From positions 843 through 64,842 of the forward strand of contig JBKHHD010000003.1 in NCBI GenBank assembly GCA_046539325.1: a stretch of DNA of 64,000 nucleotides, in the 5' to 3' direction. Both the position numbers and the translations under genes were made by a program. Positions within the stretch are counted from its first letter, which is position 1, and the number at the start of each line of letters is the position of its first letter. This stretch comes from Candidatus Aenigmatarchaeota archaeon. GTDB taxonomy: Archaea; Aenigmatarchaeota; Aenigmatarchaeia; PWEA01. Below the pieces are notes generated by a model. The model had not been told where the DNA came from. It ran no database searches and worked only from the letters and a program-made list of their open reading frames with translations. Below are positions 14,170 to 52,360 of the stretch, piece by piece.

Positions 14170-15078
14170 CTAAGTCTTCTGTTTAGAGACGTAACTGTAA
14201 GTAGAGTATGCCGCTATAGCTCCTTCAGCAGAAGCAGTTACTATCTGTCTCAACTTGTTGCTGCCCGTCGTAACGTCGCCGGCAGCGAAAACACCGTCCA
14301 CACTCGTCGAAAGGTCTTCGTCAACCTCTATAAAACCGTCTTCGTCTCTGCTTATTTCCTTTTCTCCTACCTCCTTTATACTCCGATTCGGAACGGAACC
14401 GATTTCTACAAAGGCTCCGTCCACTTCTACCTCTTCACCGTTGTTGAAAACTATCTTCTTCAAGAACTCGTCACCTACGAACTTCTCTGGAGCTAAACCT
14501 GTCCTCATCTCTATCTTCTCGTTGTCCTTGCACTTCTGTACCATTATCTTCTCCGCACTTATCTCGTCCGTAGCTTCAAATACAGTAACTTTGTCGGCGT
14601 GCTCGGCGAGCTGCATGGCAGCCTTTAGTCCTGAGTCAGCTCCTCCTATGACCGCTACCTCCTTGTTTCTGTACAGCGGCGCGTCACAGGTCGCGCAGTA
14701 GCTCACACCTTTACCTATCAGTTCGTCTTCGCCGAGTATATTCAGTCTTCTCTTGTCGGCGCCCAAGGCAAGGATCACTGAGACTGCTTCGTATGTCTCG
14801 TCCTTGGTTGAAACCTTGAAGTTGCCGTTTCTCTTTATCTCCTGGACCTTCTTCTCAATAACATCAACTCCAAGATCCTCTATCTGCTCCTTCATTTTGT
14901 TCATTAACTCCTGTCCTTCTATCTCCTTGGTACCGGGCCAGTTTTCCACGATATAGGCTTCGCTGCACAGTCCTCCTAGTTCCTCGCCTACAACAACCAC
15001 GTCTAGATCGTACCTCTTCGCGTACAAGGCTGCAGTATAGCCCGCAGGCCCTGTACCTACCACCACTAAATCCTTCAT
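14170..15078 (-). CDS. trxB: Thioredoxin-disulfide reductase
   Basis: FAD GxGxxG VVGTGPAGYTAA. Redox-active CATCDAPLY. NADPH site AVIGGADSG. Confidence 0.85.
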   Translation of the reverse strand: MKDLVVVGTGPAGYTAALYAKRYDLDVVVVGEELGGLCSEAYIVENWPGTKEIEGQELMNKMKEQIEDLGVDVIEKKVQEIKRNGNFKVSTKDETYEAVSVILALGADKRRLNILGEDELIGKGVSYCATCDAPLYRNKEVAVIGGADSGLKAAMQLAEHADKVTVFEATDEISAEKIMVQKCKDNEKIEMRTGLAPEKFVGDEFLKKIVFNNGEEVEVDGAFVEIGSVPNRSIKEVGEKEISRDEDGFIEVDEDLSTSVDGVFAAGDVTTGSNKLRQIVTASAEGAIAAYSTYSYVSKQKT

Positions 15079-15418: not shown

Positions 15419-15682
15419 TCACCTCATACAGTTTACACATGTTGGTCCTTTGTTTGTTTCAGGGATTTCGTAGTTCTCCTCCTCCCACTCCTCCACAAAC
15501 TCTTTCCAGTTTTCAAGATGCTCCTTGGAACAAAACTTCTTTCTATGCTTCCCTACGTATCCTGGCACCTTAACCTTTTCCACTACTCCGTTGTCCTCAA
15601 GGACGGAGTTGCAGAACTGACACCGTCCTTTTATTAGACCTCTCACGTAGTCAAACATATTATCACAATCCGCACGAACCAC
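15419..15682 (-). CDS. Small Cys-rich protein, putative metal-binding
   Basis: CDNMF...CQFCNS...CSKEH...CVNCMR in 87 aa. Confidence 0.4.
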   Translation of the reverse strand: MVRADCDNMFDYVRGLIKGRCQFCNSVLEDNGVVEKVKVPGYVGKHRKKFCSKEHLENWKEFVEEWEEENYEIPETNKGPTCVNCMR

Positions 15683-15851
15683 AGGAAGAGGTCGAACAGG
15701 AAGAACAACTGCTCCCTGCTACCATCTCATTTTTTTCGTAAAGCTTGGTCCAGCAGTCCCTGCAGACCATCACCTTGCCTTTATCTGTATGGTTCGCCTC
15801 TAATAGACTCCCTTCACTACCGCATAACTCACAGCTCATGATTATCAACAA
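15663..15851 (-). CDS. Small Cys-rich protein with a Cys/Ser low-complexity tail
   Basis: CELCGS...VCRDCW zinc-ribbon-like, followed by C-terminal SSCSSCSTSSCGSCGL. Confidence 0.4.
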   Translation of the reverse strand: MLIIMSCELCGSEGSLLEANHTDKGKVMVCRDCWTKLYEKNEMVAGSSCSSCSTSSCGSCGL

Positions 15852-16263: not shown

Positions 16264-16518
16264 TCAGTCGTGGTGTTCGAACATATCGTCCTGAACTGCG
16301 TCCTTTTTCTGTAACCACTCGATAAGCATCGCTACATGTTCCTTTTCCTCGTCACGGTTGTGCTCCAGTATCTCCTTTAACTCTGGATCGTTTGTGTTCT
16401 CTACTCTCTCTTGATACCAGTTCACAGCTTCCAGCTCCTCGATCAGGGACTGCCTTGCCCTTTCTAGGTCGAGAGTCTTAGTGGAAAGAGTTTCCTTTCC
16501 CTCATGTTCGCCTGTCAT
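16264..16518 (-). CDS. Ferritin-like small protein, EncFtn/rubrerythrin-like four-helix segment
   Basis: EELEAVNWYQERV...DEEKEHVAMLIEW carries paired E..E and ExxH ligand motifs. 84 aa. Confidence 0.45.
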   Translation of the reverse strand: MTGEHEGKETLSTKTLDLERARQSLIEELEAVNWYQERVENTNDPELKEILEHNRDEEKEHVAMLIEWLQKKDAVQDDMFEHHD

Positions 16519-16602
16519 ATTTAAATCACCCCATAAATAGTATCTTTTTCCTGATTAACATACCTTATGGTTGAAAATAAAAAGAAGGGATTGTAAGAGG
16601 TT

Positions 16603-17727
16603 TTAGCACGAGCCTGCAGGTGCCGTGTTTTCACTACTTGAACCCAAGGTTTCCGAGCAAGCGTCAGGCTCTGCTTCAAAGCCTGAGCAGATCGTCTTCT
16701 TGTAGGCGTCTGGATTTCCGTACTCGTAGACTGCTTCGCTTTCGACGCCGTTGATGAACAAAGTCGGAGAAGCTGAAACACCTCTCTCCTGCGTTATCTT
16801 TGCCTCCTCTTCGAGTAGTTCATCGCCTCTGTTTTCTACACAGCTTTCAATCTCCTCGACGCTAAGTCCTGCTTCTTGAGCGGCTTCCTGCCAGCACTGA
16901 CCTTCGCTTCCACAGTTATCGTTGACATAGGTCGCGAATTCAAACCATTTACCGACGCCATTGTCCTCAAGCACACAGAGCTCTCTCTCGTCCTGTTCTA
17001 CTTCCGCTTGTCCGTGAAGCGACTGGAATCCATCCTCACTGTTTCCTCTCACGATAAAATGAGGCTCCCAGTTCACCTTGTCACCAAGCAGCTCGTGGAC
17101 AGGCTCCATGGTGTTTTCGGCCTGGTTCCCGTAGGGACAGAAGCTCTGGACGAAGAGCTCTACAGTCGGCTTCTCCTCAGTTGGAATCTCCTCTCCTTGA
17201 CTATCTGTGTTTTCTCCAGTGTTTTCTTCAGTAGTTTGATCCATGTCAATTATGCCGTCGCTCATGATCAATTTTTCTCCATTCAAAGTTGCGTAAACAG
17301 GAATCTCTTGGTTCTGATAACCGGTTGTAACTTTGTAGAGCTCATCTTCTCTACTTACATTCACTAATTCTGCCTCGCCCTGCTGTATCATTTCTGAGTT
17401 GAGAAAACTGACCGCTTTTTCCCCAACTTCGTTGGCATCCAGAGATTCACTCCTGGTGAATTCACCTGTGATGCAGGATCCAAACAGACCGGAAAAGTAG
17501 ATATTGATGAGCAGGAGAACAGCAAGCAAAACAACGCCCCACTTCCAAGGACTTAGGAAAGGCAAAGAATCGCGGGAGAAGTTCTCTGACTCTGCTTTTC
17601 CATTTTCCTCAGTTTCACTACCTTCATCAGATTCTCCTTGGCTGTGCACCTGTGACTGATGAACATGCAGACCTTTCTTCGTGTCAAACGTCTTTCCACA
17701 ATCACTACACTCAAACTCTTCAGGCAT
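16603..17727 (-). CDS. Membrane-anchored DsbA-like thiol-disulfide oxidoreductase with an N-terminal cytoplasmic C2H2 zinc finger
   Basis: N-terminal FECSDCGKTFDTKKGLHVHQSQVH fits the classical C2H2 spacing. TM WKWGVVLLAVLLLINIYF. C-terminal FVQSFCPYG and DsbA cis-Pro loop SPTLFINGVESE. Confidence 0.6.
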   Translation of the reverse strand: MPEEFECSDCGKTFDTKKGLHVHQSQVHSQGESDEGSETEENGKAESENFSRDSLPFLSPWKWGVVLLAVLLLINIYFSGLFGSCITGEFTRSESLDANEVGEKAVSFLNSEMIQQGEAELVNVSREDELYKVTTGYQNQEIPVYATLNGEKLIMSDGIIDMDQTTEENTGENTDSQGEEIPTEEKPTVELFVQSFCPYGNQAENTMEPVHELLGDKVNWEPHFIVRGNSEDGFQSLHGQAEVEQDERELCVLEDNGVGKWFEFATYVNDNCGSEGQCWQEAAQEAGLSVEEIESCVENRGDELLEEEAKITQERGVSASPTLFINGVESEAVYEYGNPDAYKKTICSGFEAEPDACSETLGSSSENTAPAGSC

Positions 17728-17769
17728 AACTTACCTTCCATTGTTTGAAACTTATAAAGTTTAAGGAAA

Positions 17770-18411
17770 TTACCGCAGTTTCCGCTGGGAGCTCCTTTCG
17801 TCTGAAGTCCCATACTTGACAGCAATGAATGAAAGTATCGAAAGAACCAAGACAACAAAAAAAGTCGGGGTGACTGACATTTCCACGGGGGCAGAAACTG
17901 TCATACTGTCAATACTAGCCTCGCAACTTGAAGATCCGACAAGGTAGGGTACATCGAACTGTTCAACGCTAACGGATCCAGGTCCCATGGCTCCCTCAAC
18001 CACCGAATCGCTTAGAAAGTTGTTGAACAAAAAAGCACCTAACAAAAGCAAGAGTACAAAAACGACAGGAACCCAGAATCCTTTTCTGTAACCAAACTTC
18101 ACTGTCTGTTCTTCCCACCATTTCCCCTTTCCCAGCGATCCTGCAACCATAATTATTCCTCCAAGGACGAAAAGAACCTGAAAGGCAATCAAGAGATACT
18201 CCAGAAAAGGAAATGAAAGCACAACGTCCAATGCGACAAACTCGTAGTGGAAGGGTGAAAGCGAAAGGTTGATGGCCTCACCAATCTCGAAACGCCACCA
18301 CGGTCCAAGGAAAGGCAGGGCTACCATAACCAGTCCTGAGAACAGACCCGGCCAGTTCAACAGCTCCATGAAGCCACTGGTTTTCTCAGACATACTCATT
18401 ACCCACCTCAA
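17770..18411 (-). CDS. Polytopic membrane protein, unknown function
   Basis: Several hydrophobic spans (LFSGLVMVALPFLGPWW, LLIAFQVLFVLGGIIMVAGSL, FWVPVVFVLLLLLGAFLF, FFVVLVLSILSFIAV). Overlaps the upstream gene by 26 nt. Confidence 0.5.
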   Translation of the reverse strand: MRWVMSMSEKTSGFMELLNWPGLFSGLVMVALPFLGPWWRFEIGEAINLSLSPFHYEFVALDVVLSFPFLEYLLIAFQVLFVLGGIIMVAGSLGKGKWWEEQTVKFGYRKGFWVPVVFVLLLLLGAFLFNNFLSDSVVEGAMGPGSVSVEQFDVPYLVGSSSCEASIDSMTVSAPVEMSVTPTFFVVLVLSILSFIAVKYGTSDERSSQRKLR

Positions 18412-18907
18412 GATCTTCTGCAGTTACTTCCAAGTCCAATACCTCCATCTCTACGGAAACGTTCTCCACTTGTCGATCAAGGTTACCTCGACGCGCAAGT
18501 GTTTCAGGATCCTCTTTAAGAGAACCTCCGAGAACAAAGCTTGTACTTTCATCCTCTTTCAAAACTACTTTCTCCTCCACGAGACTGAGTTCACAGACCT
18601 TTCTTTCACCCATGTACATGTCTCCTGAGAGTTCCTCCAGGTAAACCTTCCTCTCGAAGGGTGAGGAAGCCTTCAGGGTAAGGTTCATCCCACCGCTTTG
18701 AGGATCGATCTCCCTATCCACCTCACGTATATCGCCCTCCTCCGTAAAGTTCGAAACGCGTTCCTGAAGCTCCTGGATGTTTTCCTCAGGTGGCATAACG
18801 GCTTCGCGCGGGTTCCAGCCGTTCGTCGAAAAAGCAAGTACAACAGGTACAAGTACGACTGAAAGGTTCAGGATAAACAGAGCAAATCCGAGCATTTTCT
18901 TGCTCAT
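18386..18907 (-). CDS. Signal-anchored secreted or membrane protein
   Basis: MSKKMLGFALFILNLSVVLVPVVLAFS signal/anchor, followed by an acidic ectodomain. Confidence 0.5.
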   Translation of the reverse strand: MSKKMLGFALFILNLSVVLVPVVLAFSTNGWNPREAVMPPEENIQELQERVSNFTEEGDIREVDREIDPQSGGMNLTLKASSPFERKVYLEELSGDMYMGERKVCELSLVEEKVVLKEDESTSFVLGGSLKEDPETLARRGNLDRQVENVSVEMEVLDLEVTAEDLEVGNEYV

Positions 18908-18982
18908 AACTCAACCTTTACTAGAGAAATTTATAAGAATAAAAAATGGGGAATTTTAAAGGTTCAACTTGAAAAACCGTCG

Positions 18983-19549
18983 CTACTCAGCTGTCTCGTT
19001 GATCGTGGTGTTCGTAGCCTGCTCCTCCTGCATCTGCTGCATGGCCTCCATTTCCTCCGCCCTCTTGTCCATGTTAAAGCCTTCAGGGAAGAGAACTTCA
19101 CCGTCTTTGGTCGCGTAGAGGGACTGTTCCTGTGTACCCGTCATTCCTTCGACCTCTATAACGACTTCGTAGAGACCATACTTCTCGTTCACTTCCTCAG
19201 CCTCTAGATCTTCCATACCTTCTTCTTGGATCAGATATTCGTTTACGAAGTCCATGACTTCATCCGCTGCTTCTTCCTTGGGTACGGTATCTCCTACTTG
19301 CTGTGTACCGAAACCTCCCTGTGCTGCGTATGCAAGTGTTACCACGAGAAGCACTGCAAGTATCCCTGATACAAGCTTCCATGGTCCAACTTCAAACTCC
19401 GTGGTCTTTCTCTTTTCTTCAACTCCTTCGTCTTTTTCCTTTTTTTCCTCGGAGCCATCGTGGACCTGTGCAGTATGTACCTTCAAGCCTCTTTCATTGT
19501 CGAACGTCTTTCCACACTCTTCACATTCAAATTCTTCTGACATGTCCAC
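18983..19549 (-). CDS. C2H2 zinc finger / TM helix / acidic ectodomain protein. Paralog of 16603..17727 without the DsbA domain
   Basis: FECEECGKTFDNERGLKVHTAQVH zinc finger. TM WKLVSGILAVLLVVTLAYAA. Ectodomain alignable to its paralog (LYEV..YATKDGEVL...MD versus LYKV..YATLNGEKL...MD). Confidence 0.6.
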   Translation of the reverse strand: MDMSEEFECEECGKTFDNERGLKVHTAQVHDGSEEKKEKDEGVEEKRKTTEFEVGPWKLVSGILAVLLVVTLAYAAQGGFGTQQVGDTVPKEEAADEVMDFVNEYLIQEEGMEDLEAEEVNEKYGLYEVVIEVEGMTGTQEQSLYATKDGEVLFPEGFNMDKRAEEMEAMQQMQEEQATNTTINETAE

Positions 19550-19639
19550 TAATTAAAAGGCGCACATTTATAAATGTTAGAACCTTCTCGTCTCCAAACT
19601 AATTTAAATCCGGCCTTCCAATGCAACTCTAGGTTCAAG

Positions 19640-20542
19640 ATGTACGATACGGTCATAATAGGAGCCGGGGTCGCAGGGATGACGTCTGCGATATACGCAA
19701 GCAGGAACAAGATGGACTTCGTAGTTCTCAGCAAGAACTTTGCCGGGCAGCTAAACATGGTCGGCGACGTAGAGAACCTTACCTTCTTCACCAAAACAGA
19801 CTGGAAGGAGCTCAGACAGAGACTGCAGAAACAGATAGACTACCATGATATAGATTTCGAAAGGGAGAAGGCAACCAAGGTCATAGATCGTGAAGAGGGA
19901 TTTGAAGTAGAAACGGAACAAAGCTCTTACAGAGGAAAAACCGTGATCATTGCTACGGGAGCCGAACCGAAAAAGCTTTCAGTTCCGGGTGCCGCCGAAC
20001 TGACGAACAAGGGTGTAGAGTACTCTGCGGTTTCAGATGCACCCAGGTTCGAAGGTGAAGACGTCGCAGTTATAGGAGGGGGGAACTCCGCGGCAGAGAC
20101 CGCACATCTTCTCTCCACACATGCCAGTAAGGTCTATATACTCAACATAAACGGCCGCATGGACTGCAAAGGAAAACTGAAAGACAAGATAAAAAACAAC
20201 GGCAACATAGAAACAATCTACAACGCAGAGACCACAGAGATAGTTGGTGAAGAAAAAGTACAGGGTCTCAAGTACAAAAAAGACGGCGAGGAGAAAATAC
20301 TCGATGTAAGAGGTGTATTTCCTGCTATAGGTATGCAGCCTCAGACGGATTTCCTCCGGGGGCTTCTCGACATGGATCCCGAAGGCCATATCATGGTAGA
20401 CAGACACTGCAGGACGTCAATAGATGGAATCTACGCCGCAGGCGACTGTACAAACATACAGAAATACCAGCTCTCGGTCGCAATTGGACATGGGGCAATA
20501 GCCCTGCTCAAAGCTGTGGAACATATTAGAGAGGAACACTGA
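19640..20542 (+). CDS. Thioredoxin-reductase-like flavoprotein lacking the redox-active CxxC
   Basis: MYDTVIIGAGVAGMTSA FAD motif and AVIGGGNSAAETA NAD motif. AVSDAPRF stands where trxB has CATCDAP. The ORF-track start at 19574 adds an implausible N-terminus. Confidence 0.75.
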   Translation: MYDTVIIGAGVAGMTSAIYASRNKMDFVVLSKNFAGQLNMVGDVENLTFFTKTDWKELRQRLQKQIDYHDIDFEREKATKVIDREEGFEVETEQSSYRGKTVIIATGAEPKKLSVPGAAELTNKGVEYSAVSDAPRFEGEDVAVIGGGNSAAETAHLLSTHASKVYILNINGRMDCKGKLKDKIKNNGNIETIYNAETTEIVGEEKVQGLKYKKDGEEKILDVRGVFPAIGMQPQTDFLRGLLDMDPEGHIMVDRHCRTSIDGIYAAGDCTNIQKYQLSVAIGHGAIALLKAVEHIREEH

Positions 20543-31376: not shown

Positions 31377-31500
31377 GGGACGGTGGCTTAGCCTGGTTAG
31401 ACGCCGGAAAGGAAATTTCCGTTTTTTGCCGCTTCCGGTGGGCAAAAGCGCCACGCTGATAACGTGGAAGTCGCCGGTTCGAATCCGGCCCGTCCCACCA
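31377..31500 (+). tRNA. tRNA-Ile (anticodon GAT) with a ~47-nt non-canonical intron in the D-loop. CCA encoded
   Basis: Acceptor GGGACGG/CCGTCCC. D-stem GCTT...AAGC restored only after removing ~31401-31447. Anticodon arm CCACG-CTGATAA-CGTGG. T-arm GCCGG-TTCGAAT-CCGGC. Confidence 0.65.
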
Positions 31501-31544
31501 TCCAAGCTTTTATAGAGTCGGGAGAAATGGAATAACAAACACAG

Positions 31545-31674
31545 GCCGGCGTGGCCTAGTGGTTAAGGCGCTGCGCTCATAAACAATAATTTATGAGCTT
31601 TGATCCGCTGACGCGGAGATGAAAAATTTTGCGGTGCAACGCAGAGAGCGAGGGTTCGACCCCCTCCGCCGGCA
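31545..31674 (+). tRNA. tRNA with CAT anticodon (elongator Met or Ile2) with a 57-nt intron at 37/38. No encoded CCA
   Basis: Acceptor GCCGGCG/CGCCGGC. D-arm GCCT-AGTGGTTA-AGGC. Anticodon stem CTGCG/CGCAG. Loop CTCATA[intron]A, where intron TTATGAG pairs with loop CTCATAA. T-arm GAGGG-TTCGACC-CCCTC. TATA TTTTATAG 29 nt upstream. Confidence 0.65.
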
Positions 31675-41652: not shown

Positions 41653-41708
41653 AGTGACGCACCTTAAATATATTTATAACTTCCAAATTAAAATAGTTTG
41701 ACTTATTG

Positions 41709-41785
41709 GGCTGGTGGTGTAGCCTGGACTAGCATCGGGGCTTTGGGAGCCTCAGACCCGAGTTCAAATCTCGGCCGGCCCACCA
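41709..41785 (+). tRNA. tRNA-Pro (anticodon TGG). CCA encoded
   Basis: Acceptor GGGCTGG/CCGGCCC. D-arm GTGT-AGCCTGGACTA-GCAT. Anticodon arm GGGGC-TTTGGGA-GCCTC. T-arm CCGAG-TTCAAAT-CTCGG. Confidence 0.9.
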
Positions 41786-51535: not shown

Positions 51536-52360
51536 ATGGCTGATTGTAGCTACTGTGGAAAGGAAGCAGATATACCATTTAAATGTAAGTTCTGTAGTGA
51601 CACCTTTTGCTCAGAACATAGGCTGCCTGAAAACCATGAATGTGTGGGGCTTGACAAGTACAAGGAAAAGGCGCGGAGTGATGAGAAAGTAGTTTACGAA
51701 CCCTTCCAGGCGACATGGGAAAAGAAGTCCTCAGGACTTTCCTCTACCTTTCTAAAAAGCATCACCCAAAGCTACTCGATGCTAATAATCTCCATATGCT
51801 TCGTAGTTTTCCTTTTGCAAGCTGCGATACCAGGGTTTACGGAGTATCTATGGCTTTCGCCACAGCTAGGCGAAATTCTCAGTAGACCCTGGACATTTAT
51901 AACTTCAATATTTCTACATGGCAACGGGTGGCATCTTTTCGTAAATATGCTCGTCCTCTTTTTCTTTGGAGGTGAGCTTGAGAGAAGGGTAGGAAGCAGG
52001 AAGTTTTTGGAGATATTTTTAGTAACTGGAATTGCAGGAAATCTAGGCTTCACACTGTTCTCCTACGCCACTGGAGAATTCATCCCAGCAGTCGGAGCCT
52101 CGGGAGCGATATTCGGTGTTTTCGCGACTCTTGCTATAATAGCGCCGGAAATAAGAGTACTGATATGGTTCGTATTTCCCCTTAAGATACGTCAAGCGCT
52201 TGTAATATTTGCCCTATGGGACTTATTCCTACTTCCAAGAGGTGGACCTATAGCAAATTCAGCTCATTTAGCAGGACTGGCCATAGGACTAATCTATGGT
52301 TATAGATTAAAAAATAAACAAACTGGCACAGCATTTAAGAAAATAACGAGGAGGTTGTAA
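51536..52360 (+). CDS. Rhomboid-family intramembrane serine protease with an N-terminal AN1-type zinc finger
   Basis: CSYCGKEADIPFKCKFCSDTFCSEHRLPENHEC. Rhomboid GASGAIFGV and AHLAGLAIG. Confidence 0.8.
   Translation: MADCSYCGKEADIPFKCKFCSDTFCSEHRLPENHECVGLDKYKEKARSDEKVVYEPFQATWEKKSSGLSSTFLKSITQSYSMLIISICFVVFLLQAAIPGFTEYLWLSPQLGEILSRPWTFITSIFLHGNGWHLFVNMLVLFFFGGELERRVGSRKFLEIFLVTGIAGNLGFTLFSYATGEFIPAVGASGAIFGVFATLAIIAPEIRVLIWFVFPLKIRQALVIFALWDLFLLPRGGPIANSAHLAGLAIGLIYGYRLKNKQTGTAFKKITRRL

Follow-up and report, generated by a model that had tools for sequence, protein, structure and literature searches.

A C2H2 finger tethered to membrane proteins with GILT/DsbA-fold ectodomains: a possible loosely coupled envelope module in a halophilic DPANN archaeon

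Four co-oriented ORFs, g1 to g4, lie on the minus strand at 16603-19549 of the window, the 64 kb stretch of DNA analysed here, which comes from a halophilic Aenigmatarchaeota-like DPANN archaeon (Table 1). Each was found where the sequence-only reading had placed it, and the ORF coordinates confirm the cluster with short gaps or overlap which that reading described: 75 nt separate g1 from g2 and 42 nt separate g3 from g4, while g2 and g3 overlap by up to 26 nt. NCBI calls g1 from the ATG at 19543 (186 aa), which is probably its true start. With one hydrophobic helix each in g1, g2 and g4 and four in g3, the genes fit the earlier description of an envelope cluster with a signal-anchored g2 and a polytopic g3. 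In an archaeon, a scan for sigma-70 promoters and intrinsic terminators carries no information. TATA-like boxes precede g1, g2 and g4, in agreement with a reading of three units (g1, g2-g3 and g4), and T-runs lie just past the g1 stop, upstream of the TATA-like TTATAAAT. Rfam models matched only tRNAs in the window.

Table 1. Features of the four-gene locus, numbered from the first nucleotide of the window.
Feature	Position	Strand	Description
TATA-like TTTATAAA	19566..19573	(-)	putative promoter element read from the sequence; centre ~27 nt upstream of g1 ATG (19543)
g1	18983..19549	(-)	188 aa: C2H2 finger, acidic linker, TM helix, alpha/beta ectodomain, acidic tail
g1 finger-coding segment	19460..19531	(-)	F-E-C-E-E-C...H-x4-H
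g1 TM helix	19319..19375	(-)	residues 59-77; hydropathy 2.15
TATA-like TTATAAAT	18929..18936	(-)	putative; ~25 nt upstream of g2 ATG
g2	18386..18907	(-)	173 aa: signal-anchored, beta-rich, extracytoplasmic; weak LEA_2 resemblance; always the upstream partner of g3
g3	17770..18411	(-)	213 aa: 4-TM plus extracellular beta-sheet (claudin-like topology), essentially Cys-free
TATA-like TTTATAAG	17751..17758	(-)	putative; ~27 nt upstream of g4 ATG
g4	16603..17727	(-)	374 aa: C2H2 finger, linker, TM, alpha/beta domain, GILT/DsbA-fold domain
g4 finger-coding segment	17644..17715	(-)	residues 5-28
g4 TM helix	17482..17550	(-)	about residues 60-82
g4 membrane-proximal alpha/beta domain	17245..17436	(-)	residues 98-161; one helix and five strands
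g4 thioredoxin-fold domain	16654..17166	(-)	residues 188-358; helical insert, GILT-like
g4 monothiol active-site motif	17128..17139	(-)	C197-P-Y-G
g4 Cys374 codon	16606..16608	(-)	C-terminal, ending an S/G/T-rich tail; Cys invariant in family
T-rich run	16574..16586	(-)	directly past g4 stop; putative, archaeal terminator-like

The N-termini of g1 and g4 share the pattern F-x-C-x2-C-x3-F-x5-L-x2-H-x4-H; translating the 64 kb window in all six frames gives exactly two occurrences (200 shuffles: mean 0.08, maximum 1), and the 84 nt encoding the two fingers form a DNA repeat, 71% identical. Both align to the full zf-C2H2 model of Pfam (PF00096, positions 1-23), g1 with 22.1 bits (E 2e-4) and g4 with 23.1 bits (E 1e-4). 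The profile check therefore went partly as the sequence-only reading expected, with a full-length alignment at E ~1e-4 but scores just below the gathering cut-off of 25.2 bits. When the N-terminal 33 aa of g4 were compared with the PDB by phmmer, all 60 listed matches were classical C2H2 fingers, among them the consensus finger 1mey (E 8e-8, the lowest value for single or consensus fingers) and ZNF484 (2yto, E 7e-7). AlphaFold2 predicts a beta-beta-alpha fold for g4 residues 4-26 (strands 4-6 and 13-15, helix 20-26; pLDDT 73-79). Pattern, predicted fold and PDB matches agree that these are classical C2H2 fingers. Including relatives, F-x-C-x2-C-x3-[FY]-x5-[LM]-x2-H-x4-H is kept with all four ligands in 18/18 distinct fingers.

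Comparison with homologues shows the finger to be under selection, and it is the best-conserved segment of its proteins or among the best conserved. Orthologues of g1 are 54-84% identical and every one has the finger; finger identity among them is 73-92%, with linkers at 31-79% and tails at 27-77% (31-48% and 27-33%, respectively, without the closest orthologue, P0122). Window g4 and its homologue P0043 are 76% identical in the finger and only 30% in their thioredoxin domains. Conservation across the 18 distinct fingers extends to the non-structural positions G7, T9, D11, T/S12, R/K14, G15 and Q22, which favours a specific cytoplasmic partner. At helix positions -1, +3 and +6, which canonically make the main base contacts, the same fingers carry T/S/N, an invariant Gly and V/I. 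Each finger is single, finger plus linker is net acidic, and the flanks are acidic. A DNA-reading C2H2 finger was rejected for want of base-contact side chains at these positions, of an array and of a basic flank, and the idea, raised in the sequence-only reading, that the finger couples the envelope or its redox state to DNA or RNA binding finds no support in these features. RNA binding is conceivable from the H-x4-H spacing and from weak zf-C2H2_jaz/Di19 matches.

These residues also bear on a transmembrane one-component signalling scheme, in which the ectodomain would sense envelope thiol or redox state and the tethered finger would alter its binding of DNA, RNA or a transcription regulator, much as ToxR/CadC do, or as membrane anti-sigma factors do with their cytoplasmic zinc domains. 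The architecture suits it (cytoplasmic zinc domain, single TM helix, Cys-containing extracytoplasmic domain), the conserved finger surface implies a specific ligand, and the single C2H2 finger of an archaeal virus, AFV1p06, in which Glu replaces the fourth zinc ligand, binds DNA (PMC3541406). Like the window finger, of eukaryote-type beta-beta-alpha fold, AFV1p06 and bacterial Ros/MucR are single fingers of the C2H2 type outside eukaryotes. They are small soluble DNA binders, whereas the window finger, with x12 spacing and all four ligands, is tethered to a TM helix in acidic surroundings and lacks DNA-contact residues. In Ros the spacing is C-x2-C-x9-H, and a basic region is present. A single acidic finger with T/S/N, Gly and V/I at the contact positions and no basic flank of the GAGA factor or AFV1p06 kind argues against signalling of this sort, as does g1, whose finger comes without any redox sensor domain. 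We consider the scheme rather unlikely.

Within 15 residues of the g1 TM helix there are four K/R on its N side and one on its C side, g4 homologues without a finger begin in a K-rich signal anchor, and the thioredoxin-fold domain, being Cys-rich with co-varying structural cysteine pairs, must be extracytoplasmic; the proposed cytoplasmic finger on a single-pass protein thus holds. The N-terminal tails are net negative (K+R against D+E, 10 vs 18 in g1 and 6 vs 14 in g4), which would suit a finger that has no ligand at all and folds fast around zinc, either holding the long acidic tail of a type II protein in the cytoplasm, the acidic proteome of a halophile giving only a weak positive-inside signal, or simply stabilising that tail. 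The simple K-rich tails of the finger-less homologues fit this idea, and so does the placement of the finger, always at the very start of the protein or, for the 2-TM proteins L055-L059, at its very end. Such a plug would need only the ligands and a hydrophobic core, yet at least seven non-structural positions are conserved in the 18 distinct fingers, and P0004 and P0011 keep the finger despite K-rich tails. We regard it as unlikely.

That g1 and g4 are paralogues is borne out by their alignment (36% identity over 182 aa, E 4e-17), and the alpha/beta domain of g4 is common to g1 and the whole DPANN/CPR family to which g4 belongs. The g4 TM helix is 91-95% identical in P0043 and P0002, and such unusual conservation suggests contacts within the membrane.

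The AlphaFold2 model of g4 (mean pLDDT 83.5) comprises the TM helix at 60-81, the alpha/beta domain at 98-161 and a thioredoxin-like domain at 188-358 with pLDDT above 90. Foldseek matched it to mouse GILT (6nwx, E 8e-8, TM-score 0.75, ~190 residues) and S. aureus DsbA (3bci, TM-score 0.74-0.75), and GILT is also the best PDB sequence match. In Pfam, GILT (PF03227) scores 19.5 bits on window g4 against a cut-off of 22.4, DSBA and Thioredoxin_4 stay below their cut-offs, and many family members have precomputed PF03227 matches. The predicted redox domain is accordingly placed closest to GILT, then to DsbA. The DsbA-like domain first proposed for g4 stands as a fold but not in the functional sense, the CxxC being absent across the family.

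We found 172 homologues of g4, which itself matches an Aenigmatarchaeota MAG protein at 100%, and inspected the best 120 of the 172. Most are ~315-aa DPANN/CPR proteins without a finger, which occurs in 9 of the best 120; E values from g4 to family members run from 1e-94 to 1e-53. Apart from its finger, g4 is on this comparison a member of a widespread DPANN/CPR family (NCBI name 'DsbA family protein'), with the finger a clade-specific N-terminal addition, and since most members lack it, it is dispensable for the basic function of the ectodomain. Hallmarks of the family are an N-terminal TM, the alpha/beta domain (Y131, Y145, D149, G150), CP[YF]G, SLHG-x2-E, SPT and eight conserved Cys including the C-terminal one; g4 matches every conserved column except D149, where it has Asn. 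Invariant in the best 120 are C197, P198, G200, H238, G239, E242, S320, P321, C347, C357 and C374, and T322 of the cis-Pro loop S-P-T is nearly so (118/120). CP[YF]G, with Cys, Pro and Gly invariant, is present in 120/120, and CPYG as a degenerate CxxC was ruled out on that ground. C251/C296 and C272/C278 are each lost jointly in three sequences (one other sequence lacks C272 alone), which marks these pairs as structural disulfides, so that C197 and the tail Cys remain to form a plausible redox couple. The latter Cys is invariant at or adjoining the C-terminus in the family, and in g4 residues 372-374 have pLDDT below 50.

GILT, the best structural match, has CxxC and CQHG-x2-EC-x2-N-x4-C, whereas g4 has CPYG and S-L-H-G-x2-E...R-E-x-C with the first signature Cys replaced by Ser; we take the family motif SLHG-x2-E...C to resemble the CQHG-x2-EC signature. 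Unlike GILT, g4 is membrane-anchored and prokaryotic (DPANN/CPR), with an extra alpha/beta domain and a C-terminal tail Cys. With DsbA, BdbD and DsbC/DsbG it shares a thioredoxin fold with helical insert, the cis-Pro S-P-T and an extracytoplasmic site, and an alpha/beta domain ahead of the thioredoxin fold recalls DsbC/G (weak profile match to the N-domain of 8pxd, E 0.064). It differs from that group in lacking CxxC, and the cluster holds no DsbB/VKOR-like partner. A search of the window for DsbB/VKOR among TM-rich ORFs with CxxC returned a single candidate, the AN1-finger rhomboid that is also encoded there. As for g3, a DsbB/VKOR-like role was ruled out, conserved Cys being absent.

Scanning genome contigs with a 4-sequence g3 alignment showed g2 and g3 adjacent in 31/31 genome loci, and in 28 non-DPANN genome loci, mostly Hadarchaeota, the pair stands without any finger protein. 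Pfam and NCBIfam gave no usable family for g2, g3, 60 g3-family members or 30 g2-family members; PF03168 (LEA_2/WHy) matched 4 of the 30 g2-family members (best E 0.0035) and not window g2. Foldseek comparison of g3 with claudin, PMP22 and TARP gave E 3e-3 or worse and TM-scores <0.45, with soluble 4-helix bundles reaching similar Z. Sequence similarity to those proteins and the W-GLW-C-C motif are absent from g3, whose family is archaeal and invariably has g2 as its partner. Because g2 lacks the [KR]G-hydrophobic class III signal, a type IV pilin identity was ruled out for it, although about 10 Hadarchaeota loci have divergent pilin-like genes upstream.

The quartet breaks down into three units, g1, g2-g3 and g4, that are shuffled, swapped or lost among close halophilic relatives. 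The order g1-g2-g3-g4 of the window recurs in L001; L007/8 have g1-g4-g2-g3, L010/11 have g1, a CPYC variant and g2-g3, L012/13/17 have the CPYC variant, g2-g3 and g1, and L048 has g2-g3-g1 without g4. In L047 g1 stands alone, and finger-bearing g4 occurs solo at unrelated sites in L004 and L009. The predicted conservation of the quartet is thus true of several close halophilic relatives, in shuffled form, and fails in the last four loci named and in the Hadarchaeota pairs. All quartet-type arrangements occupy one syntenic site, with TatD/TrxR-like genes on one side and EncFtn or rubrerythrin, Lrs14, Trx and TrxR on the other, so the adjacency could be largely inherited rather than functional. 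The genes might form no functional cluster but be chance neighbours in a variable region within a conserved syntenic block, the finger proteins a local tandem duplication and g2-g3 unrelated to them. The solitary g1 and g4 genes, the finger-free Hadarchaeota pairs and the probable separate promoters ahead of g1, g2 and g4 speak for this; the three units nevertheless remain neighbours across at least four gene orders, and the conserved g4 TM helix suggests intramembrane contacts. We think it doubtful.

In the seven halophilic-relative loci on contigs long enough, g1 is flanked by an Lrs14/Sta1-like regulator, thioredoxin, TrxR and ferritin-like/rubrerythrin genes. For the signalling scheme these would be welcome neighbours, the Lrs14/TrmB-type regulator and the Trx/TrxR/EncFtn genes being conceivable targets, but they are syntenic with or without g4 (L047, L048) and the linkage is uninformative. 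One and the same finger-TM module carries three exported thioredoxin-fold types: in the window, L001 and L007 a GILT-like domain with CPYG, in L010 (269 aa) and L012 (393 aa) a small Trx/Grx-like domain with CPYC, and in L054 a Thioredoxin_4 domain with CGYC (E 6e-18). This recurrence on three kinds of exported thiol oxidoreductase, which signalling would also accommodate, means that the finger must do something specific.

The reading we favour, with a probability of roughly 0.45, is a loosely coupled envelope module. In it, g4 would be a type II membrane protein whose ectodomain (TM, alpha/beta domain, GILT/DsbA-fold domain) most likely carries out thiol-disulfide exchange on surface proteins, with CPYG supplying the single nucleophilic Cys and the flexible C-terminal tail probably supplying the resolving one, its invariant Cys. 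Lacking the redox domain while keeping finger, TM helix and alpha/beta domain, g1 would be a catalytically empty paralogue that probably partners g4-type proteins through the common alpha/beta domain and TM helix. The g2-g3 pair, beta-sandwich-like plus claudin-like 4-TM, would be an older, independent archaeal membrane pair recruited beside g1 and g4. The cytoplasmic finger is most likely a zinc-stabilised protein-interaction module docking a cytoplasmic partner, not a DNA reader. Cytoplasmic zinc modules on membrane anchors that serve protein-protein contacts have parallels: AN1-finger rhomboids occur in haloarchaea and ZAS anti-sigma factors in bacteria. A further one is CdpC, a zinc-ribbon FtsZ1 anchor of haloarchaea (bioRxiv 10.64898/2026.07.16.738847). 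Their zinc folds differ from that of the window finger (AN1, HxxxCxxC and zinc ribbon, respectively), and none is fused to an exported thioredoxin fold. It is improbable, in our view, that the thiol/disulfide state or client load of the thioredoxin-fold domain is relayed through the highly conserved TM helix, possibly with g2 and the claudin-like g3, to control binding of a regulator or nucleic acid by the finger; if true, DPANN archaea would have their own counterpart of ToxR/CadC or anti-sigma signalling, with a eukaryote-type finger as building block.

Literature on archaeal membrane C2H2 proteins, DPANN DsbA and CPYG thioredoxins yielded no description of this family or architecture; the combination of finger and GILT/DsbA-type ectodomain appears undescribed, and is a new domain architecture assembled from known parts. 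Nearly all classical C2H2 fingers belong to eukaryotes and are soluble. In these symbiotic nano-archaea, whose genomes are very small, a complete four-ligand finger is fixed to exported thiol oxidoreductases at their cytoplasmic end. Two families deserve description in their own right: the large DPANN/CPR monothiol GILT-like family with its C-terminal 'swinging' Cys, and the conserved archaeal pair of a claudin-like 4-TM and a beta-sandwich-like protein. The partner of the finger would reveal non-DNA roles of a single prokaryotic C2H2 finger and could reveal how DPANN cells connect surface disulfide chemistry to the cytoplasm.

Four open reading frames, designated g1 to g4, occupy the minus strand between 16603 and 19549 in the source MAG (Candidatus Aenigmatarchaeota, DPANN), whose proteome is acidic and of the halophile type; these and other features of the window are listed in the table below. 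Gaps of 75 nt (g1-g2) and 42 nt (g3-g4) separate the outer genes from the inner pair, g2 and g3, which overlap. Hydropathy analysis gave one hydrophobic helix each for g1, g2 and g4 and four for g3, the K/R-rich segments of which fall on the predicted cytoplasmic side. Since g1 and g4 can be aligned through the finger, TM helix and following domain (36% identity, E 4e-17), they are, as judged by sequence, paralogues over these regions, and their finger-coding DNA is 71% identical. TATA-like octamers, which we take as putative promoters, lie 25–27 nt 5′ of the start codons of exactly g1, g2 and g4, and runs of T come after g1 and g4. NCBI ACLFTY_01605 matches the g4 protein at 100% identity.

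Coordinates of the gene cluster and other features in the window
Feature	Position	Strand	Length	Description
g1	18983-19549	-	188 aa	C2H2 finger, TM helix, alpha/beta ectodomain
g2	18386-18907	-	173 aa	signal-anchored, beta-rich
g3	17770-18411	-	213 aa	polytopic membrane protein
g4	16603-17727	-	374 aa	layout of g1 plus thioredoxin-fold domain
EncFtn-like ferritin	16264-16518	-	84 aa	stand-alone, directly 3′ of g4; PF22277, E 3e-31; own TATA-like box
Zinc-ribbon-like ORFs	15419-15851	-	87 and 62 aa	two small, overlapping, Cys-rich
True TrxR	14170-15078			CATCD
Flavoprotein	19574-20542	+		thioredoxin-reductase-like, divergent from g1; SAVSD
AN1-rhomboid	51536-52360	+		rhomboid protease, N-terminal AN1-type zinc finger; zf-AN1 E 1.4e-11, Rhomboid E 2.9e-34
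Rfam tRNA matches	31431-31674 and 41708-41782	+
tRNA match	31545-31674		130 nt	71-position model

The sequence-only reading had recognized classical C2H2 fingers in g1 and g4, and pattern, Pfam alignment, PDB matches and predicted fold all agree with it. Both N-termini share F-x-C-x2-C-x3-F-x5-L-x2-H-x4-H, a pattern that occurs twice in the six-frame translation of the window against 0.08 expected. Pfam zf-C2H2 aligned end to end with both fingers (E 1-2e-4), at 22–23 bits, slightly below the gathering score of 25.2. All 60 PDB matches listed for residues 1-33 of g4 were eukaryotic C2H2 fingers (best single or consensus finger, E 8e-8), and AlphaFold2 predicts a beta-beta-alpha fold for residues 4-26. 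The finger is the best-conserved segment of g1 and g4, or among the best, and 18 distinct finger sequences retain not only the zinc ligands and hydrophobic core but also G7, T9, D11, T/S12, R/K14, G15 and Q22. Conservation of these non-structural residues argues for a specific ligand, and makes it quite unlikely that the finger is a mere topogenic or stability plug for folding. The proposal that it couples envelope or redox status to DNA binding found no support: each protein has a single finger, finger and linker are net acidic, and of the three positions that chiefly contact bases, +3 is Gly and +6 is Val/Ile. Transmembrane signalling via the finger is improbable. The H-x4-H spacing and weak matches to JAZ/Di19-type profiles would allow for RNA binding.

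We compared g4 with 172 homologous proteins and counted family features on the best 120. Most of these are ~315 aa, belong to DPANN archaea or CPR bacteria, and open with a short tail, K-rich or charged, ahead of a TM helix; only 9 of the 120 have a finger. Conserved residues include Y131, Y145, D149 and G150 in the membrane-proximal domain, invariant C197-P-[YF]-G, S-L-H-G-x2-E and S-P-T motifs in the thioredoxin-fold domain, and eight cysteines. The AlphaFold2 model (mean pLDDT 83.5; >90 over residues 188-358) has one helix and five strands at residues 98-161 and, beyond them, a thioredoxin fold that carries a helical insert. Foldseek placed mouse GILT first (E 8e-8, TM 0.75), above S. aureus DsbA, M. 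tuberculosis DsbA, BdbD and a plant VSR thioredoxin-like domain; GILT was also first in the profile-to-PDB search, in which the N-domain weakly matched the DsbC/G-type protein 8pxd (E 0.064). The description of g4 as DsbA-like is thus right for the fold but not for the active site, as DsbA and GILT are defined by CxxC, whereas the g4 family has a monothiol CP[YF]G throughout.

Cys251/Cys296 were lost jointly in three sequences and Cys272/Cys278 likewise in three (C272 alone is missing in one further sequence), and this pairwise loss marks them as structural disulfides. Cys197, Cys347 and Cys357 are essentially invariant, and a cysteine within 2 residues of the C-terminus closes a flexible S/G/T-rich tail in 116 of 120; we infer that Cys197 and the tail cysteine may form a redox pair. 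Because it is stabilised by disulfides, the g4 ectodomain must be extracytoplasmic and, with a single TM helix, the finger must therefore be cytoplasmic, as first proposed. The K/R bias flanking the g1 TM helix (4 versus 1) and the signal-anchor N-termini of finger-less homologues agree.

In halophilic relatives, where flanking genes are ~85% identical, the cluster occupies a shared syntenic site bordered by TatD/TrxR-like genes on one side and by EncFtn or rubrerythrin, Lrs14, Trx and TrxR genes on the other. Conservation of the quartet is only partial: it is kept at this site, but its order is shuffled, members are lost, and finger-g4 also stands alone at unrelated sites (L004, L009). That there is no functional cluster is unlikely. 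The moving units are g1, g2-g3 and g4, exactly those with TATA-like octamers before their start codons.

Gene orders in the window and related loci
Order	Loci
g1-g2-g3-g4	window, L001-3
g1 (288 aa)-g4 (461 aa)-g2-g3	L007/8
g1, finger-TM-domain-CPYC thioredoxin-like protein (269 aa), g2-g3	L010/11
finger-TM protein (393 aa) with duplicated domain and CPYC glutaredoxin-like end, g2-g3, g1	L012/13/17
g2-g3-g1	L048
g1 alone	L047

The CPYC ectodomains of L010 and L012, unrelated to the g4 family, likewise end in a cysteine (...VGC). L012 and L049 are present in soda-lake samples from Kulunda. Comparing window 16603-17727 with L001 (8001-9170), L004 and L007, we found that g4 and its positional orthologue P0043 share 91% identity over the TM helix and 76% over the finger, as against 30% over the thioredoxin domain. 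The thioredoxin domain of g4 is 64–67% identical to its counterparts in P0004 and L007_461, two proteins with TM helices of just 26–34% identity to that of g4. On these identities g4 is a mosaic in which finger and TM helix track the local lineage, and the closeness of its thioredoxin domain to non-syntenic homologues suggests replacement of the ectodomain through recombination. A metagenome scan with a finger-TM profile yielded two further architectures: in L054 (1156-2586), finger and TM helix are followed by a Thioredoxin_4 domain of the canonical CGYC type (E 6e-18) and then by a polytopic C-terminal region with an intramembrane CSAC, and L055-L059 encode small proteins (126–132 aa) in which the finger is C-terminal and accompanied by two TM helices and an acidic linker.

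The g3 family is small, has no Pfam match and forms 113 clusters (50% identity) in a set of 1.84 billion representatives. The g3 protein is modelled with high confidence as a tetraspan that has an extracellular sheet and a putatively claudin-like topology; g2 gave weak LEA_2 matches in 4 of 30 family members. In all 31 loci from GTDB genomes (the window pair at 17770-18907 (-) and L014-L046 were examined) g2 lies directly 5′ of g3, often overlapping it. According to their labels, 26 are from Hadarchaeota or Hadesarchaea and two from other archaea, namely L032 (a Methanobacteriota MAG) and L045 (Ca. Methanoxibalbensis); a further locus is in a bin labelled Thermincola (bacterial; possibly mis-binned), and two are from halophilic DPANN (L016, L017). 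No C2H2 protein was encoded in the non-DPANN loci. Of 26 non-DPANN loci analysed, 21 have a small GIY-YIG gene ahead of g2-g3, and in ~10 loci pilin-like genes (class III signal) are clustered upstream in divergent orientation. Family alignments revealed no conserved cysteines in g2 or g3, which rules them out as DsbB/VKOR-type partners.

Around the cluster, the flavoprotein divergent from g1, which probably starts at Met23 (19640), lacks the redox-active CxxC of true TrxR; it is 86% identical in L001 and L007, and a His-rich 213-aa membrane protein takes its position in L010, L012 and L047. No encapsulin shell gene adjoins the EncFtn-like gene, the position of which is held by a rubrerythrin-like gene in some relatives. 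The 62-aa zinc-ribbon-like ORF has a Ser/Cys-rich C-terminal tail, GSSCSSCSTSSCGSCGL; relatives have one gene (131 aa) or two (58 + 79 aa) here, with weak DUF7576 matches. The span of the tRNA match at 31545-31674, set against its shorter model, would fit an intron-containing archaeal tRNA. The AN1-rhomboid is the window's second membrane-protein case of a eukaryote-like cytoplasmic zinc finger.

As a precedent, AN1-finger rhomboids are archaeal membrane proteins whose cytoplasmic zinc module acts via protein contacts. Another cytoplasmic zinc module making protein contacts is found on the membrane-associated zinc-ribbon FtsZ1 anchor CdpC (bioRxiv 10.64898/2026.07.16.738847). The only characterised archaeal C2H2 finger, that of viral AFV1p06, is soluble and DNA-binding (PMC3541406), whereas those of g1 and g4 are membrane-tethered and acidic. 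All component domains are of known kinds; an architecture that joins a classical C2H2 finger through a TM helix to an exported GILT/DsbA/Trx-fold domain appears not to have been described before, and neither does the repeated occurrence of this architecture among halophilic DPANN. As to function, we infer, tentatively and with a probability of about 0.45, that the finger may be a zinc-stabilised docking module for a cytoplasmic partner, on a scaffold that would present exchangeable thiol-redox ectodomains.
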